A stretch of 26,285 bases of DNA. Source: Thermodesulfovibrionales bacterium. Lineage in GTDB: Bacteria; Nitrospirota; Thermodesulfovibrionia; Thermodesulfovibrionales; SM23-35. The notes under the pieces were generated by a model. That model saw only the letters and a list, made by a program, of their open reading frames with translations. It did no database searches and had not been told where the DNA came from. The stretch lies in the NCBI GenBank assembly GCA_035624555.1, contig DASPRG010000169.1, positions 1 through 26,285 on the forward strand. Reading direction: 5' to 3'. Of this stretch, positions 1 through 15,581 are shown piece after piece; within the stretch, counting starts at the first letter, position 1; every line of letters starts with the position of its first letter. The position numbers and the translations under genes were made by a program.

Positions 1-6
1 GGGGGG

Positions 7-34
7 GAGGAGCCCCCGGGGGAGGGGGCCCCTC
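7..34 (-). terminator. GC-rich stem-loop 12 nt downstream of the ftsZ stop (possible terminator or REP-like stabilising hairpin)
   Basis: The mRNA strand reads GAGGGGCCCCC-UCCCCC-GGGGGCUCCUC, an 11-bp stem with one G.U pair. It is followed by a C-run rather than a U-tract, and the window edge cuts off what comes next. Confidence 0.5.
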
Positions 35-46
35 GGTGGAGGGATC

Positions 47-7677: not shown

Positions 7678-8970
7678 TCACAATAAAGGAGTTTCATAAT
7701 TGTCCATTTTGTCTTTTTCATTTTTCATTCCGTAAATAGCCCTTTTAGCTTTTCTTCTTGCAATCAATTTTTGTTTTATATCTTCAATCTCCTCGTTGTC
7801 TTTTCCTCTTGATATATTGAGGAGCATTCCAATAGCAGCCATGTTTACAAGGAGAGATGAACCTCCATAACTGATAAAGGGCAGAGGTAAGCCCTTTGTA
7901 GGAACCATGCCGGTAGCAACAGCGAAGTTGATAAGAGCCTGAAGTGAGACCATCAGGGTGAGTCCAACAGATAGGTAATAGGCGAATCTGTCCTTTGTTT
8001 TATTTGCTATCGATATCCCTCTGATAAAAATGAGCAGAAAAAGGGCAGTTACAACTGAGACGCCTATAAAACCGAACTCTTCACCGATAATAGAAAAGAT
8101 AAAATCTGTATGTGACTCTGGCAGGTAAGACAATTTCTGCATTGAGCCACCGATGCCAACACCGGTGATGCCCCCGCTGCCAAAGGCTATAAAAGACTGC
8201 ACAAGCTGAAAGCCACTGCCCTGAGGATCCTTCCAGGGATCAAGAAAGGATATGACTCTCCTGAGGCGGTAAGGTTCCCTAATGAGTATATACAGTACTG
8301 GGAGGGCGAATACAGAGAGGGAGGAAATGTATCTGAGTCTTGTCCCAGATAGAAAGAGCATTGCGAGCGTAAGAAACGCAAGGCTCATAACAGCTCCGAA
8401 GTCTGGCTGCATAAGCATAACAGCCTGGAATGCGATCATAATAGAAAGGGGCTTTATAAAAGATCCAAAGCTTTCAGTTCTATAGTTAGCTGATGACAGA
8501 TGCTGTGCAAGGAATATGACCATAGAAAGTTTTACGAACTCTGATGGCTGAAAGGTTGAAGGCCAGAGTCTTATCCATCTCCGTGCACCACCTGCAGAGA
8601 CACCAATACCAGGCACGAAAACGAGTATTAAGAGCAGAAAGGAAAAGATCAGAAGAGGGATGGCTATCTTCTTGAGGAAAGAAGGTTTCAGACTGTAGGC
8701 AAGAAACATACACCCAAGTCCTATGAGGATTGTAACGATATGTCTCTTGAAGTAATAAAATTCGCTAACACCCTTTTTTGCAAGGTCTGGTGTGATGACA
8801 GAGGTTGAACTGTATATCATGAGAACGCCAAAGACAACAAGAACAAACGTGGTTAGGAGAAGCAATTTGTCATAGGTAGGGTAAAGTGACGAGGGACTGT
8901 TAACAGATGACAGGTTAAGTTCTGAAAATCGAAGGCTTAATTGCTTCTTACTCATTGCCTTATCCCTCAT
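7678..8970 (-). CDS. ftsW: Peptidoglycan glycosyltransferase FtsW (SEDS family)
   Basis: GARRWI, QPSEFVK, QPDFG, GFQLVQS, LPESHTDFIFSIIGEEFG, PTKGLPLPFISYGGSS. ATG overlaps the murD TGA. Confidence 0.98.
   Translation of the reverse strand: MRDKAMSKKQLSLRFSELNLSSVNSPSSLYPTYDKLLLLTTFVLVVFGVLMIYSSTSVITPDLAKKGVSEFYYFKRHIVTILIGLGCMFLAYSLKPSFLKKIAIPLLIFSFLLLILVFVPGIGVSAGGARRWIRLWPSTFQPSEFVKLSMVIFLAQHLSSANYRTESFGSFIKPLSIMIAFQAVMLMQPDFGAVMSLAFLTLAMLFLSGTRLRYISSLSVFALPVLYILIREPYRLRRVISFLDPWKDPQGSGFQLVQSFIAFGSGGITGVGIGGSMQKLSYLPESHTDFIFSIIGEEFGFIGVSVVTALFLLIFIRGISIANKTKDRFAYYLSVGLTLMVSLQALINFAVATGMVPTKGLPLPFISYGGSSLLVNMAAIGMLLNISRGKDNEEIEDIKQKLIARRKAKRAIYGMKNEKDKMDNYETPLL
7701..7728. repeat. Heptamer array in the ftsW C-terminal tail
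   Basis: Coding strand ATGAAAA ATGAAAA AGACAAA ATGGACA. Confidence 0.55.
8886..8913. repeat. Heptamer array in the ftsW N-terminal extension
   Basis: Coding strand CTGTCAT CTGTTAA CAGTCCC TCGTCAC, containing the 10-bp palindrome CTGTTAACAG. Confidence 0.5.
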
Positions 8971-10439
8971 GTCAGCTCCATAACGACCTTTTTGAATTGT
9001 CTTCCTCTGTCTTCAAAATCCAAAAACATATCAAAACTGGCGCATGCAGGAGAGAGGAGGACAACATCCCCTTTTCCTGCGATACCACGTGATATATGTA
9101 CTGCCTCTTTCAGGTCTTTAGCTATAAACGTCCCAGTAAGGTCTCCGAGAGCCTTTTTTATCTTCTCGCGGGCTTCACCGATAAGAACAAGGGCCTTTAC
9201 CCTCTCTTTTACTAAACTTCTCAGCGGCGAGAAATCTCCTGCCTTGTCTCTGCCTCCTGCAATCAGGATGACAGGCTCTTTAAAGCTCTCGAGGGACTTG
9301 ACTACAGCACCTACATTCGTCCCCTTTGAATCATTAACGTACCTGATGCCATCTATCTCTCTCACAAATTCGAGTCTATGCTCCAGACCAGGAAATTCTC
9401 TCAGGGAATCCTTTATTGCCTCCAAGGGACTTCCTGCAAGGAGAGCCATGGCCGAAGCGGCCATGGCATTCTCCAGGTTATGAACTCCTTTGATTTTTAT
9501 CTCGTCAGCATGTATGAGTGATGAGTGGCGAGTGATAAGTGACAAGTCAGGAAAATTACAGTAGATTCTTCCGTCTTTAAAATAGATACCTTCAACCTCT
9601 TTTTTCCTGCTGAAGTAAAAAATATCTGGTTTTTTACGTTTACCCTTTAACTTTTTTCGTGCAACCTCTACTGTTTTGGGGTCATCAGCATTGAGGAGCA
9701 GGAAATCTCCTCCCCTCTGGTTATCGAATATTCTTGCTTTTGCCTCAGAGTACTCTTCAATTGAATGGTATCTGTCAAGGTGGTCAGGTGTGATATTTAG
9801 AATCACGGCCCCTTTGGGTCTGAAGTCCTTTATTGTTTCGAGTTGAAAGCTTGATACCTCAGCAATAATGTAGTCAATGGTGTTTTGACTGTTGATTACC
9901 GACTTCCCATGGGTTGTAGACTGGCTTTTAGCCATTTTCAGTATCTCATCGGACAGGGCATTCCCTATGTTGCCCCCGAGGATTGTCCTGAAACCACCCT
10001 TTCTGAGGATTGCATTCAGGAGGGTAGTTGTTGTGGATTTGCCATTTGTTCCAGTAACAGCAAGAAACGATATCCGACTGCTGACTGCTGACCTATCAGA
10101 TACGAATCGCAGTGTCTGGTTGCTTGCCATCTGGTAAACAAGTTCAAGCTCCCCTATGACGGGAATACCTTTTTCCCTTGCCTTTAATAAAGGTGGAACA
10201 CTGAGGGGAACTCCAGGGCTGATTACTATCATATCAGCTGACACGAATAAGTCTTCAGGATGACTCCCCAGAGAAAGCCTGACCGAAGATTTGAGTTTTT
10301 CTCTAAAATCCATAAGTTCCTCTTCTGTTTTTCTATCTGTCACCGTCACATCAGCACCGAGTTCGGAAAGCAGATTTGCTGCTCCTATACCGCTTCTGCC
10401 AAGGCCCACAACCGTAATTCTTTTACCCTGTATTTCCAT
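8967..10439 (-). CDS. murD: UDP-N-acetylmuramoyl-L-alanine--D-glutamate ligase
   Basis: GLGRSG, SPGVP, TGTNGKSTTT, EVSSFQLE, NITPDHLDRY, HRLEFV, NDSKGTN, LSPACASFDMF. Confidence 0.99.
   Translation of the reverse strand: MEIQGKRITVVGLGRSGIGAANLLSELGADVTVTDRKTEEELMDFREKLKSSVRLSLGSHPEDLFVSADMIVISPGVPLSVPPLLKAREKGIPVIGELELVYQMASNQTLRFVSDRSAVSSRISFLAVTGTNGKSTTTTLLNAILRKGGFRTILGGNIGNALSDEILKMAKSQSTTHGKSVINSQNTIDYIIAEVSSFQLETIKDFRPKGAVILNITPDHLDRYHSIEEYSEAKARIFDNQRGGDFLLLNADDPKTVEVARKKLKGKRKKPDIFYFSRKKEVEGIYFKDGRIYCNFPDLSLITRHSSLIHADEIKIKGVHNLENAMAASAMALLAGSPLEAIKDSLREFPGLEHRLEFVREIDGIRYVNDSKGTNVGAVVKSLESFKEPVILIAGGRDKAGDFSPLRSLVKERVKALVLIGEAREKIKKALGDLTGTFIAKDLKEAVHISRGIAGKGDVVLLSPACASFDMFLDFEDRGRQFKKVVMELT
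9512..9546. repeat. Heptamer array inside murD
   Basis: Plus strand GTATGAG TGATGAG TGGCGAG TGATAAG TGACAAG, encoding LSLITRHSSLI on the coding strand. Confidence 0.8.
9885..9905. repeat. Heptamer array inside murD (STRR3-like)
   Basis: Plus strand TTGACTG TTGATTA CCGACTT. The coding strand contains CAACAGT (9888-9894). Confidence 0.55.
10074..10094. repeat. Heptamer array inside murD
   Basis: Plus strand CCGACTG CTGACTG CTGACCT, encoding RSAVSSR. Confidence 0.65.
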
Positions 10440-11535
10440 TTGTATTTTTTTCTAGGACTCTGTAATCTTTCCCCTTTTTAGTCTTTGCAAGTGTTTTTGT
10501 CTTACTCCTTTTCTTTGCAATGGAATTTGTTCCACTTTTTTTCTTTGTCAGTTTTGTCTTTGCTTTCAGCTTTGAACTTTTAACCTGAACCTTTGAATTT
10601 TTCTTATAGGTTGCCTTTCTCACATTGTAAACATCGTAATCTGCTTTTGTGAAATAGATAACAGGTTCTTCTTTGTTGACCATAATGTTAAACCCCTTAT
10701 CAATAAGGGTCTCTGTCTCTTTCCAGAGGTTCACCCTGCTCGGGCTCCCGAGAAGGGCAACAATTACTGTATCCTTTTCACGCTCAGCTGCACATACAAA
10801 ACAGTGCCTTGCCGCGCGTGTATATCCTGTTTTTCCTCCTATAAGGTCTTCATCAGACCATAATAGTTTGTTTGTGTTCTTGAGAAATAAGCCGTTTCCC
10901 TTTTCTGTCGAGACCTCTGCCACACGAGTTCCGATTATTTCTTTCAGTTTTGGGTATCTCAAGGCATACCGCATCATGAGCGACAAATCAAAGGCAGTTG
11001 TATACTGGTCTTGGCCAGGGAGGCCATGAGGATTTATGAATTTAGTATCCCTTAGCCCAATAGCTTCTGCCTTTCTGTTCATGAGGTAGACAAAGTTCTC
11101 CTCAGAACCAGCTACAGCTTCTGCGAGAGCAACAGCAGCATCATTTGCAGACTTCAGGAGTGCGGCATAGAGAAGTGTCTCAATGGTTACCTCATCCCCC
11201 TCTTTGAACCCTGCCTTTGAAGGAGAAACCAGAGAGGGATTTTTGCTTATCCTTACAATATCCGAAAGATTTTTCTCTTCTATGGCTACAATTGCTGTCA
11301 TCAGCTTTGTTGTACTTGCCGGAGGAAGCCTGAGATTCGGATTCTTTGCATAAAGGATCCTTTCTGTTGATGCCTCCATCACGACTGCTGCCCGGGAATT
11401 AAAATCATCAGCATGTACGACGGTGGGAAGTGAAAACTGAAAAGTGAAAAGGATAAAGACTAAAATGAAAGATAATTTTTTCTGCTTGACAACTGACGAC
11501 TGAAGACTGACGACTAACGACTGTTTCATGATCAC
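10423..11535 (-). CDS. Serine-type D-alanyl-D-alanine carboxypeptidase/endopeptidase (peptidase S11, low-molecular-weight PBP) with Lys-rich tail
   Basis: SxxK (PASTTK), SxN (KSAN), KTG (GKTGYT), NPHGL, signal-peptide-like N-terminus ending VHA|DD. Start is GTG 11535 or ATG 11529. Confidence 0.93.
   Translation of the reverse strand: MIMKQSLVVSLQSSVVKQKKLSFILVFILFTFQFSLPTVVHADDFNSRAAVVMEASTERILYAKNPNLRLPPASTTKLMTAIVAIEEKNLSDIVRISKNPSLVSPSKAGFKEGDEVTIETLLYAALLKSANDAAVALAEAVAGSEENFVYLMNRKAEAIGLRDTKFINPHGLPGQDQYTTAFDLSLMMRYALRYPKLKEIIGTRVAEVSTEKGNGLFLKNTNKLLWSDEDLIGGKTGYTRAARHCFVCAAEREKDTVIVALLGSPSRVNLWKETETLIDKGFNIMVNKEEPVIYFTKADYDVYNVRKATYKKNSKVQVKSSKLKAKTKLTKKKSGTNSIAKKRSKTKTLAKTKKGKDYRVLEKNTNGNTG
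10563..10597. repeat. Heptamer array in the S11 peptidase C-terminal tail
   Basis: CTTTCAG CTTTGAA CTTTTAA CCTGAAC CTTTGAA. Confidence 0.7.
11430..11457. repeat. Heptamer array in the S11 peptidase signal peptide (hydrophobic part)
   Basis: GTGAAAA CTGAAAA GTGAAAA GGATAAA. Confidence 0.75.
11485..11523. repeat. Heptamer array in the S11 peptidase N-terminus
   Basis: CTTGACA ACTGACG ACTGAAG ACTGACG ACTAACG ACTG, encoding QSLVVSLQSSVVK. Confidence 0.85.
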
Positions 11536-12615: not shown

Positions 12616-13980
12616 TTATTCTGTCTCCAGAACCCGTTCCATACGCATACCCCTCGACCCCTTTATCAGAAGGGTATCTCCTTCTTTACAGATACCCCTA
12701 ATCATTTCCCGAGCATCGAGAGAATTCCGAAATGTATAAAACTTTCGTGTGAATTCGGATGCTGCAGAAGACATCAAGGGTCCTATCGCCACAAAGATGT
12801 CAATCGGCAGTTCTGACATCCAACTCACGAGTTTTCTATGGGCATCATATTCATAAGAGCCGAGTTCCAGCATATCTCCCAAAACAGCAATAGCCCTTTT
12901 CTTCTTGAGCCTGACAAGTTCTTTTATGGCCTCCTCCATAGAAGCCGGGTTTGCGTTATATACATCACTGATAATTTGAAGGCCCTTGAGTTCTTTAATC
13001 TCGAATCTCATCGGGATGCTACTAAAAGAATCTATCACATTCTTTATATCCCTCAGTTCAATATGAAAGAGATGACCAATAGAGGCAGCTGCGAGGAGAT
13101 TATAAATATTAAATTTCCCTGATATTTTCGGATTGACTTCTACAGATTTGTTCTTGCCGATGTGTAAGAGAAAGGTAGAACCCTTTTCATGAAGCCTGAT
13201 ATTCGTCGCATAGATTTCGGCGTCATTGTCTATCCCGTATCTGACTATTCTCCCTTTGAACCCTGAGTTTTGAATACCTTCTATCAAGAAGGAATCATCA
13301 GCGTTCACAACAGCCACACGAATATAATTCAAAATTTCAAGTTTTGTCCTCCTCAGGGTCTCCATATCCTTAAAACCCTCGAGGTGGGATGGACTGATAT
13401 TTGTTATAACACCATAATCTGGCATTGCTATTTCGCATAACTCCTTTATATCGCCCGGTATACTTGCACCCATTTCTAAAACAGCAGCCTCATCCTTTTC
13501 ATTTATCCCTGTTAAAGTCAGGGGAAGTCCGATGTGATTATTCAGATTACCTGTATTTTTCAGTACCCTGTATGTAGAGCTCAGGATCGATGCTATGAGT
13601 TCTTTTGTGGTTGTCTTGCCATTCGATCCTGTGATGCCAATGACAGGAATGGCTCTTTTCAGGCGCATATAATGAGCCATCCCCTGAAGGGCCTTGAGTG
13701 TGTCCTCCACAGTGATGATGGTTTTCCCCTCTATCAGTTCCGCAGGAGGAAATGTTACAAGAGCGCCGCTTCCTACCTGTAATGCCTCTTGAAGAAAATC
13801 GTGCCCGTCAAATCTCTTGCCTTTGAGGGCAATGAATAACTCGCCTTCTTGTATCAATCTTGAATCTATTGACACACCAGTGAAGGTATGAGCATTTTCA
13901 CAGATAACTTTCCCCCCTGTTGCTGCAATGATATCTTCGATTTTCAAAACCCCTTTAATCTCATTTCCGAGCATCCACAA
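12616..13980 (-). CDS. murF: UDP-N-acetylmuramoyl-tripeptide--D-alanyl-D-alanine ligase
   Basis: SIDSR, ITGSNGKTTTKE, NLNNHIGLP, VLEMG, DVYNANPASM, GDMLELG, KGSRGM. Exact start uncertain (TTG 13980 or ATG 13974). Confidence 0.98.
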   Translation of the reverse strand: MWMLGNEIKGVLKIEDIIAATGGKVICENAHTFTGVSIDSRLIQEGELFIALKGKRFDGHDFLQEALQVGSGALVTFPPAELIEGKTIITVEDTLKALQGMAHYMRLKRAIPVIGITGSNGKTTTKELIASILSSTYRVLKNTGNLNNHIGLPLTLTGINEKDEAAVLEMGASIPGDIKELCEIAMPDYGVITNISPSHLEGFKDMETLRRTKLEILNYIRVAVVNADDSFLIEGIQNSGFKGRIVRYGIDNDAEIYATNIRLHEKGSTFLLHIGKNKSVEVNPKISGKFNIYNLLAAASIGHLFHIELRDIKNVIDSFSSIPMRFEIKELKGLQIISDVYNANPASMEEAIKELVRLKKKRAIAVLGDMLELGSYEYDAHRKLVSWMSELPIDIFVAIGPLMSSAASEFTRKFYTFRNSLDAREMIRGICKEGDTLLIKGSRGMRMERVLETE

Positions 13981-15581
13981 TGCTCATTCACTCCCTGAAT
14001 TCGCAATTTGTCTTTAATCGCCTCCTCAAGAATTTCTCTATCATTCAATCGATACCGCTTGCCTTTGATTTCTTGGTAATCCTCATGACCCTTGCCTGCA
14101 ATAAGGACGATATCTCTATCACATGCTAAATCTACTGCCTTTCTGATTGCTTCTCTTCTGTCGGGTTCTTTCATGTAGTTTCTTCTTACAGCGCCATCTT
14201 CGATCTCCCTGATGATATCGGATGGTTCTTCTGACCGAGGATTATCAGAAGTCAGAATAACAATGTCACTCAGCTTTGTTGCTACAGCACCCATCTTTGG
14301 TCTCTTACCACGGTCTCTGTCTCCCCCGCATCCAAAGACGGTAATTATACGTGGCACTTTCTTTAGTTCATAGTTAGTGAACTGGTCATTGGTCATTGGA
14401 CATTGGTCATTTGTCACTGGTACCAATGTCTGATGACTATTGACGGATGACTTTTTTATGATATCCCTTGCTGTACATATCAGCCTATCAAGAGCATCAT
14501 CTGTATGGGCATAGTCAATAAGGCAAAGGAAGTTTTGACCAAGGTCAATTTTTTCGAACCTCCCTGTAACACCATCAGTCTTTCTTATGCCTTCAAGGAT
14601 TATCTGCCACGGGACTCCCAGGGAGATTGATACGCCAGCTGCAGACATGATGTTGTATACATTAGGCAGACCTATCAAAGGGGATGCGACATCGTAACTC
14701 CTGCCGCGGAAAGATATCTTAAATCTCAGTCCCTCAGAGGATGGATTCATTTCCCTCGCGACGATATCTGCTGCATCCTCAAGCCCGTATGTCAGTATCC
14801 TGCTCGGTTCTGAGTCTTGTCCGCCTGAGGCAGATCCAAACTCTGAGGCTAACCTCTTCCCATAGGAGTCATCCAGATTTATTACAGAGGTTCCATTCTT
14901 GTCGAGGAGCTCCCTGAATAATCTCTCTTTTGACCGGAAATAACTTTCCATCGTTTTATGAAAATCCAGATGGTCTCTCGTGAGATTGGTGAAAACAGCA
15001 ACCTTGAAAACAGCCTCATCCACCCTGTGCTGTTCAAGGGCATGGGAGGATACCTCTGAAATAACATGGGTGCAACCGGAAGAGAGCATATCTTTTAACA
15101 GACCATGGAACTCTAAAGATTCAGGTGTTGTGAAAGGTGCAGGATAGATCCTGTCTTTTACCATGTAGTGTATCGTGCCAATCAGGCCAACGTCCTTTCC
15201 CCAGGATTCGAGTATGGACTTGAGGATATACGTTGTTGTTGTCTTCCCGTTTGTACCTGTTATACCGATGAGGAAAAGATTTTCTGATGGCATTCCGTAA
15301 AAATTATGTGCAATGCAAGCAAGGGCTTTTCTGCTATCTTTGACGCGGATGTAAGCAATCTTTGCGTCTCTCAAGTCTCTCTCCCCCATTACTGCGATCG
15401 CTCCTTTCTTGATTGCTTCTGTGATAAAATCATGTCCATCATACCTTTCACCCTTTATCGCTACAAACAGATAGCCCTCTTTTACCTTCCGTGAATCATA
15501 AGCCACACCCTTTACATCTCTATCCAGTGACAGAGAGTTGTTTACAAAATCACAGCCTTGAAGAAGTTCTTTCAAGATCAT
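13944..15581 (-). CDS. murE: UDP-N-acetylmuramoyl-L-alanyl-D-glutamate--2,6-diaminopimelate ligase
   Basis: YDSR, TGTNGKTTT, TTPES, EVSSHAL, TNLTRDHLDFH, DYAHT, VFGCGGDRD, DNPR (meso-DAP specificity motif), GKGHEDYQ. Confidence 0.99.
   Translation of the reverse strand: MILKELLQGCDFVNNSLSLDRDVKGVAYDSRKVKEGYLFVAIKGERYDGHDFITEAIKKGAIAVMGERDLRDAKIAYIRVKDSRKALACIAHNFYGMPSENLFLIGITGTNGKTTTTYILKSILESWGKDVGLIGTIHYMVKDRIYPAPFTTPESLEFHGLLKDMLSSGCTHVISEVSSHALEQHRVDEAVFKVAVFTNLTRDHLDFHKTMESYFRSKERLFRELLDKNGTSVINLDDSYGKRLASEFGSASGGQDSEPSRILTYGLEDAADIVAREMNPSSEGLRFKISFRGRSYDVASPLIGLPNVYNIMSAAGVSISLGVPWQIILEGIRKTDGVTGRFEKIDLGQNFLCLIDYAHTDDALDRLICTARDIIKKSSVNSHQTLVPVTNDQCPMTNDQFTNYELKKVPRIITVFGCGGDRDRGKRPKMGAVATKLSDIVILTSDNPRSEEPSDIIREIEDGAVRRNYMKEPDRREAIRKAVDLACDRDIVLIAGKGHEDYQEIKGKRYRLNDREILEEAIKDKLRIQGVNEHCGCSEMRLKGF
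14382..14451. repeat. Ten-unit heptamer array forming an imperfect inverted repeat inside murE (STRR2-like)
   Basis: CTGGTCA TTGGTCA TTGGACA TTGGTCA TTTGTCA CTGGTAC CAATGTC TGATGAC TATTGAC GGATGAC, centred on GGTACC at 14419-14424. Confidence 0.9.
14820..14834. repeat. GC-rich mini-hairpin inside a murE loop
   Basis: The mRNA strand reads UCUGCC-UCA-GGCGGA, a 6-bp stem with one G.U pair, inside the apparent insertion GSASGGQDSE. Confidence 0.35.

Follow-up and report, generated by a model that had tools for sequence, protein, structure and literature searches.

An in-frame heptamer-repeat hairpin in the MurE linker of a Thermodesulfovibrionales bacterium probably inherited its stop-avoiding codon from a dispersed cassette

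Results

A heptamer array in the inter-domain linker of MurE

The stretch of DNA analysed here (the window: 26,285 nucleotides, contig DASPRG010000169.1 of GenBank assembly GCA_035624555.1, from a Thermodesulfovibrionales bacterium) carries a complete division and cell-wall (dcw) cluster on its minus strand, and the murE gene of that cluster, for UDP-MurNAc-tripeptide synthetase, is interrupted in frame by a tandem array of 7-base units (Table 1). On the coding strand the array reads GTACCAG TGACAAA TGACCAA TGTCCAA TGACCAA TGACCAG. The first base of codon 387 is position 14423; units 1 and 4 are in phase 0, where they read GTA and TGT, and TGAC is kept in units 2, 3, 5 and 6. An in-phase copy of TGA is expected at every third unit because 7 and 3 share no factor, and rereading of the sequence and frame confirmed the point made in the initial annotation, namely that the two in-phase units are the only ones to lack TGA. 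Unit 1 fits poorly, with only 4/7 consensus positions matched, and shares bases with GGTACC, the centre of an imperfect palindrome; the edge of the array is a better description of it than a patched unit. The sole clear one-base patch is unit 4, with TGT at the place of TGA. Tandem Repeats Finder reported the array at 14383-14421 with period 7, 5.6 copies and 84% matches. Growth by 21-base blocks was considered and rejected: units 1-3 and 4-6 are identical at 15/21 positions, which is no better than the similarity between single units.

The insert lies between the motifs DYAHT and FGCGGDRD, in the linker between domains 2 and 3. The NCBIfam MurE profile NF001126 matches the protein (2.3e-172) in two stretches with a break at residue 377, and the alignment to PDB chain 8f5d breaks from query residue 375 to 411 opposite 385 to 391. 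The open frame runs past the array into the conserved C-terminal MurE domain and the insert is thus predicted to be translated, as the initial annotation had held. Together with an adjoining array of AGTCAWY-type units the heptamers make a hairpin, its arms (14385-14407 and 14422-14444) being 83% complementary over 23 bases, with a computed RNA folding energy of -29.6 kcal/mol (z=-4.7). The left arm is the older; it is common to murE of the related genomes G003, G015 and G009. A weak remnant of a third array, at 14352-14381, is related to AACTCYG arrays that occupy the same place in murE of G003, G008 and G009.

The murE array is not assembly noise, because independent metagenome assemblies carry it. 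Logan contigs from three metagenome studies span it without insertions or deletions (X1, 4395 bases; X3, 750 bases, from another study; X5, 250 bases, from a wetland study), and the claim that the insert is real was borne out. The strain behind X5 is about 96% identical and has AGA in place of the out-of-phase TGA of unit 6; its variants at 14388 and 14435 are not paired in the hairpin. Peat and wetland metagenomes hold DNA near-identical to the window, and the closest named relatives of its MurE are metagenome-assembled genomes (MAGs) labelled Nitrospirae or Thermodesulfovibrionales. Logan unitigs of 33-44 bases from three peat runs match the array at 14383-14416 with 2 differences, at depths of 28-48 against 3-13 for the genome's own contigs; the array family is therefore multi-copy, or is present in more abundant organisms, in those samples.

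The patched core recurs in frame in unrelated genes

The genome of the window (G000) has the same composite three times, in murE, in a UDG-family gene and in a CoA-activase gene: about four units of AGTCAWY, then a short loop, then ACCAATG ACCAATG KCCRATG ACCAAT, in the frame ..VNSHQ....NDQ[C/W]PMTN.. These are copies of a dispersed cassette of about 65-75 bases made of two inverted heptamer arrays: (AGTCAWY)4, a loop, usually AGTnAAAACC, and then AATGACC AATGTCC AATGACC AATGACC. The consensus sequences of the left and right arms are reverse complements except at one base. When 57 genomes of the family, which is one of peat and sediment bacteria, were searched by pattern, the patched core, ATGACCA ATGTCCA ATGACCA ATGAC, turned up in 20 genomes from 11 genera, against 2 matches for controls, and this patched form is the consensus of the cassette inside genes of the family. 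Twelve copies could be aligned in frame, in twelve genes from nine genomes of the Thermodesulfovibrionales family (Pfam identity for 11/12), and they share a consensus of about 65 bases, AGTCAACAGTCAATAGTCAnCAGTCATTAGTnAAAACCAATGACCAATGTCCAATGACCAATGACCAAT. Their hosts are unrelated: MurE, UDG, CoA activase, TrpE, a GT9 heptosyltransferase fusion, a CobQ-like protein, the SMC hinge, TsaD, FabF, LpxB and DapF.

The codon at the patch is TGT in 10/12 copies and TGG in 2/12, both TGG copies being in G000. TGT is not a deviation specific to murE, since the 19-mer ATGACCAATGTCCAATGAC, with TGT, is also found in frame in five more genes, in genera other than that of the murE host. Because the identical TGT recurs in unrelated genes, the patch probably travels with the cassette, and the TGT of murE was probably inherited with it rather than made locally. 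When the stop position was left free in the search (ATGACCAANNNCCRATGAC), TGT was found six times, TGG once, TGA nine times and unrelated triplets in three cases; the other six one-base sense variants of TGA were absent from this search. All seven TGT or TGG arrays lie in open reading frames (ORFs) in the sense direction (325-1005 aa) with the triplet in phase 0, and no sense ORF runs through any of the nine TGA matches (seven arrays), two of the arrays being antisense within ORFs.

In the right arm the patched unit is always preceded by one unit and followed by two, with the arm ending before the next in-phase copy; the additional unit and the GGTACC loop of murE amount to a 3-base shift of this pattern. 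A compensatory change in the hairpin was considered and rejected: unit 4 pairs through its TGT with ACA in the variant left-arm unit AGACATT (AGTCATT in G015), but this is a single pair and is not seen in the other copies.

ORFs with a Y1-transposase domain (PF01797) are present in G000, G005, G015 and G007 and were not found in the congener G001, an array-rich genome of 74% completeness. They include an ORF of 233 aa at 10672-11001 of contig C56 of G000 (53 bits), and G007 has 22 PF01797 matches (28 listed places). A Y1 transposase of the RAYT kind mobilises REP/REPIN elements, but with regard to copying of the cassette such a Y1-transposase-like ORF is only a lead.

Orientation is the main route by which arrays in genes avoid stops

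The MAG G000 comprises 1.31 Mb in 181 contigs and has a completeness of 81%; G001 (1.43 Mb fetched), about 95% identical to it in dcw proteins, was used as a replicate. Genes were called with a codon-usage-scored ORF picker, which gave 88% coding for G000 and recovered the dcw genes, and period-7 arrays were collected at a length of at least 21 bases. Both genomes have an excess of 7-base periodicity: 90 arrays at lag 7 in G000 compared with 13, 25 and 8 at lags 6, 8 and 9, and 95 compared with 11, 28 and 17 in G001. Arrays of period 8 are thus somewhat commoner in both than those of periods 6 and 9; one example is GGGGACTC x3 in murD of G005.

After refinement G000 had 110 arrays, 53 of them genic, 41 intergenic and 16 across a gene end, and their density in genes was 0.17 of that outside (about sixfold denser in the 12% of the genome outside genes than in the 88% within them). 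The consensus unit of the G000 gene arrays contains a stop in the sense direction in 9 cases and in the antisense direction in 32. Among discordant gene arrays a stop was sense-only in 3 and antisense-only in 26 (p=1.5e-5), the corresponding figures for G001 being 2 and 28, and the pooled figures 5 and 54 (p=2e-11). Intergenic arrays have a stop on either strand in about two-thirds of cases, and 10/16 edge arrays of G000 lie on gene 3' ends in the stop-giving orientation. Orientation, not patching, is the main route by which gene arrays avoid stops. A one-time filter, in which gene arrays enter at random from the intergenic pool and open ones are kept, was rejected: it predicts a stop in the consensus of 30% of gene arrays and 14% was observed (p=0.004). 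More than a single filter acts, or other unit families enter genes.

Each of the nine sense-stop gene arrays of G000 is placed in a terminus, linker or loop of a housekeeping gene, the hosts being a GlmU-like gene, TolB, UDG, an MqnA-like gene, CoA activase (two arrays), ThiE, ValRS and MurE. The idea that stop-bearing gene arrays are second arms of inverted pairs was not supported by any enrichment of partners (2/14 against 10/84) and fits only murE and TolB. Over the whole genome, 21/110 arrays have an inverted partner at most 120 bases away and none does in a reversed-consensus control; such pairs are commonest between genes (13/41), as at C82:9331-9407 and C37:2565-2636 at gene 3' ends, where they may be terminator-like hairpins.

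No in-frame stop triplet is kept

For murE alone, the chance that two deviant units of six fall on both in-phase places is 1/15, and when the frame is taken as open the same pattern has a probability of 1. The in-phase deviation is by itself uninformative because an open frame makes it certain, a point that the initial annotation itself had made. The phase test that the initial annotation proposed is more telling when counted over all nine sense-stop arrays of G000, where in-frame stop triplets were kept in 0/10 cases and out-of-frame ones in 20/28 (71%); in G001 the figures were 0/8 and 9/16, and for the two genomes together 0/18 and 29/44 (Fisher p=6e-7). The in-frame deviations were one-base changes in 10/10 cases in G000 and in 5/8 in G001, the other 3 differing at two bases. 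Triplets that are not stops show no such effect, being kept at 78% in frame and 75% out of frame in G000 (p=0.35), and phase had no effect on them in a wider test (p=0.23). Permutation of units within the nine arrays gave a product of about 1e-5 for the probability that all frames are open. The proposal that gene arrays have been filtered for open frames, and that units in the stop phase deviate, agrees with these counts, and so does its corollary that intergenic arrays have no phase effect: at least one frame is open in 24/51 intergenic stop-consensus arrays compared with 20.0 expected. The remaining array mismatches have no codon-position bias (8.2, 8.7 and 8.4%; p=0.94), and 'stay open' is the only detectable constraint on gene arrays. 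The tail of the GlmU-like gene has identical in-frame patched units in G000 and G001, and its out-of-frame units switch between TAA and TGA.

The murE linker is a hot spot of array turnover

The contents of the murE linker differ in G001, G003, G005, G015, G017, G007, G008 and G009. ACNCATY arrays are found there in G001, G004 and G005, AGTCAWT units with a CCCCCC..GGGGGG palindrome and AACTCTG units in G003, inverted AGTAACA and ACTTGTC arrays in G015, and nothing but the GC palindrome in G007 and G017; the murE gene of G004 is split between contigs at this site. The TGACCAA arm is in murE of G000 only and is missing from murE of five congeners. Elsewhere, comparison of 71 orthologous array sites between G000 and G001 showed many arrays to have been replaced wholesale, some to be identical and some to have changed in concert. 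Length differences at intergenic and edge sites were multiples of 7 in 12/22 cases, and in-gene length differences between congeners were 0 or multiples of 3 at 26/32 sites. At C156:3366-3404 and C5:1130-1162 of G000 the two genomes have arrays of equal length in which all units differ by one and the same base (at C156:3366, CAAAGT x5 as opposed to CAGAGT x5), between flanks that are 85-91% identical; this looks like concerted evolution or in-register replacement.

Other arrays in the window

In the C-terminal tail of ftsW the third unit reads AGACAAA, so that GAC stands where TGA would be in frame; the sequence is as the initial annotation had it, and the array is weak (two exact units, Tandem Repeats Finder score 34, 15% indels). 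The tail is conserved and A-rich in three congeners, with substitutions only.

The N-terminus of the ORF at 10423-11535 has a CAGTCGT array in its signal-peptide region (11428-11523) in G000 and an AAAGTTN array of equal length and register in G003 and G005, with AGT every 7 bases in common; the AAAGTTN array is in the stop-bearing orientation and its in-frame TAA position is GAA. In murD, positions 9885-9905 read AGTCGGT AATCAAC AGTCAAA in G000, where G003 has a near-perfect TCGTCAC x4, and at 10074-10094 G000 and G001 have 12 additional bases of CAGCAGT units. GC-rich palindromes (CCCCCC..TTTACTAAA..GGGGGG, or the shorter TCCGCC..GGCGGA) stand in frame inside heptamer arrays or cassette loops, at window positions 3-43, in the murE linkers of G003, G007, G008, G009 and G017, and at L204 and L230, and would be read as PPHPPLTKGG-like segments.

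Table 1. Positions of the features of the murE hairpin and of the ftsW array in the window
Feature	Positions	Strand	Description	Basis
murE	13944-15581	minus	UDP-MurNAc-tripeptide synthetase, host gene, 545 aa	ORF and NCBIfam NF001126
Right arm of cassette	14382-14423	minus	Six TGACCAA-type heptamers, read VPVTNDQCPMTNDQ (residues 387-400)	
Patch codon	14400-14402	minus	TGT (Cys394); unit consensus there is TGA	
Palindrome centre	14419-14424		GGTACC, centre of imperfect palindrome, in place of the usual cassette loop AGTnAAAACC	
Left arm	14425-14452	minus	AGTCATC CGTCAAT AGTCATC AGACATT, read (K)SSVNSHQTL	
Remnant of third array	14352-14381	minus	AACTATG AACTAAA, weak	By eye
ftsW C-terminal tail	7701-7728	minus	ATGAAAA ATGAAAA AGACAAA ATGGACA, read MKNEKDKMD, weak array	

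Discussion

The array in murE is likely to be one arm of an in-frame hairpin cassette in the MurE linker, and its TGT codon is likely to have arrived as part of that cassette instead of arising in murE. The cassette sits in frame in the variable linker that joins the central and C-terminal domains of the enzyme and would be translated as a low-complexity loop, probably neutral in its effect. An open frame could hold such an arm only if the in-phase copy of the unit had been changed and the arm ended before the next in-phase copy, and the change is selected, given that a stop in murE would be lethal. A variant of the cassette open in one frame was most likely copied or recombined into, or copied next to, a pre-existing AGTCAWY array in the lineage of this genome, and copying would then be the source of the patch.

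A further possibility, which we put forward tentatively and to which we would not yet give even chances, is that the heptamer hairpin is a mobile cassette whose master form is coding-competent and is being actively copied, in frame, to linkers and loops of essential genes in at least 8 genera; in such a form the fixed TGA to TGT change, with a T to C change in the other arm, would leave exactly one frame open through both arms. Several observations weigh against the main account, that of a patch inherited with the cassette. The murE copy is nonstandard, with its GGTACC loop and one more unit before the patch, and is not a plain copy, and no target-site duplication or clear insertion boundary was seen at the murE linker. 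The genomes compared are kin and the copies are not all independent, two of the host sites being orthologous (LpxB in G016 and G046; CoA activase in G000 and G032). Six of the 32 in-gene length differences were not multiples of 3; of these, five were checked, one proving to be -18, two lying at or beyond the gene start, one (C50) having a net difference of -8 and one (C100) an ambiguous match. The gene calls were our own and ORF-based, with no trained gene finder behind them, and tests conditioned on ORFs are partly circular: the definition of an ORF forces both the phase pattern and the split between patched arrays inside ORFs and unpatched arrays outside them, a pattern that shows consistency, not mechanism.

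According to the initial annotation the arrays arose as purer repeats, of which only those with a variant unit in the stop phase persisted in coding sequence. Applied literally to murE, this would mean that a purer TGACCAA array grew by slippage, that its in-phase units then mutated and that the patched arrays persisted. Slippage does occur, as the intergenic arrays that changed by multiples of 7 between G000 and G001 attest (12/22), and the uniformly single-base in-frame deviations of G000, with out-of-phase units keeping their stop triplet at the background rate, are what such a process would leave. We nevertheless regard a local origin as unlikely. The purer state could not have existed in murE because it would have placed TGA in frame in an essential gene and because each 7-base step shifts the frame; with either change lethal, that state was not passable. 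Nor is there a duplication of a 21-base block in the array, and the same TGT core is present in five other genes of other genera. Selection on the protein is another conceivable source of the conserved core, in which case NDQCPMTND, with its Cys-Pro-Met, would be functional and the cassette a small functional module. Cysteine is encoded in 10/12 copies and the flanking NDQ..PMTND is conserved, but the conservation is that of the DNA repeat unit, array mismatches are spread over codon positions without bias, the hosts are unrelated and the sites are linkers or termini, two copies encode tryptophan, and close congeners with an intact MurE lack the arm. We give this explanation little credence.

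It might also be argued that there is nothing biological to explain, and that the pattern is a by-product of viewing chance low-complexity sequence inside an ORF. The absence of in-phase TGA is certain once the frame is open and the ftsW tail could be a mere A-rich Lys/Asn/Glu tail, but chance alone would account very poorly for arrays of period 7 being seven to ten times as numerous as those of adjacent periods in both G000 and G001, for the bias in orientation and for a cassette that recurs with an identical core, and we attach very little weight to it. The presence of a heptamer array inside a coding sequence brings to mind a slipped-strand phase-variation switch, or contingency locus, of the neuO kind, which hardly seems plausible in an essential gene with an array that is degenerate (84% matches), has no indels in the contigs of three studies and belongs to a set in which in-gene length differences between congeners are mostly 0 or multiples of 3 (26/32 sites). 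The fragmentation of the MAG into 181 contigs, with the murE of G004 split at this very site, would be a reason to suspect an error of assembly or binning; that explanation has next to no chance of being correct, given that X1, X3 and X5 span the array without indels and that the frame is open. The inherited cassette is accordingly the account that we prefer.

Tandem 7-base repeats are known from other bacteria. Direct repeats of the heptamer TAACTGA have been described in Beggiatoaceae, cyanobacteria and Bacteroidetes; in the 'forward' direction they give stops in all three frames and end ORFs, and in the 'reverse' direction they are translatable inside ORFs (MacGregor 2015, PMC4679880). The arrays described here resemble them in being abundant, of period 7 and mostly intergenic, and in obeying the same orientation rule. 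They differ in that TAACTGA is one unit, found mostly just upstream of start codons, whereas there are about 100 unit families in this Nitrospirota lineage, with many arrays in essential genes, often as inverted pairs, and with the stop orientation opened by a fixed one-base variant. The orientation rule was therefore already in print for TAACTGA, and the phase rule is arithmetic. The STRR heptanucleotide repeats of the cyanobacterium Calothrix PCC 7601 (cited in PMC4692102), and the over-represented heptameric simple sequence repeats of bacteria, are likewise close to the present arrays. Although the STRR repeats belong to a different phylum, the murE array is like such STRR and LSSR repeats in its head-to-tail 7-base units, in the genome-wide excess of period 7 and in the enrichment of arrays in non-coding DNA. 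One STRR unit is presumably a rotation of the present unit; a literature search for STRR unit sequences returned unrelated papers only.

The Rickettsia palindromic elements (RPEs), reportedly the subject of work by Ogata and colleagues in 2000, are said to be about 100-150 bases long and to lie in frame in unrelated housekeeping genes. The cassette is similar to them: both are small dispersed palindromes in frame, RPEs being read as added surface segments, and the cassette too has dispersed copies, a hairpin structure and in-frame positions in unrelated genes. Unlike the cassette, RPEs are not built from heptamer arrays. The neuO contingency locus of Escherichia coli K1, with its heptanucleotide (AAGACTC)n, is mentioned in PMC13001214. 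It shares with murE the presence of heptamer repeats in a coding region, but the murE array is degenerate, fixed and in an essential gene. The neuO repeats are said to be perfect and variable in copy number, to turn the gene on or off, and to give a peptide with a 7-residue period when the frame is kept; in murE neither frame-shifting steps in copy number (in the three studies) nor near-perfect repeats were found. A literature search for heptanucleotide repeats in Nitrospirae found nothing, and we came across no publication on hairpin cassettes that lie in frame and share a stop patch.

The new element in our findings is that one and the same base keeps a stop-bearing heptamer arm open across unrelated genes and genera, so that degenerate repeat units become a marker of descent. 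This suggests that growth in place is not necessary for heptamer arrays, which can also spread in the form of ready-made cassettes with an open frame. For annotation, it means that such inserts are genuine and are not frameshifts or assembly errors. If this interpretation is correct, it offers a handle on how repeats of this kind move, and it bears on the appearance of new loops in essential enzymes such as MurE, FabF, TsaD, DapF and SMC. Should the tentative proposal of an actively copied mobile cassette also prove true, the cassette would be a continuing source of new protein segments in these bacteria, and would imply a copying mechanism of a kind not yet described for heptamer repeats.

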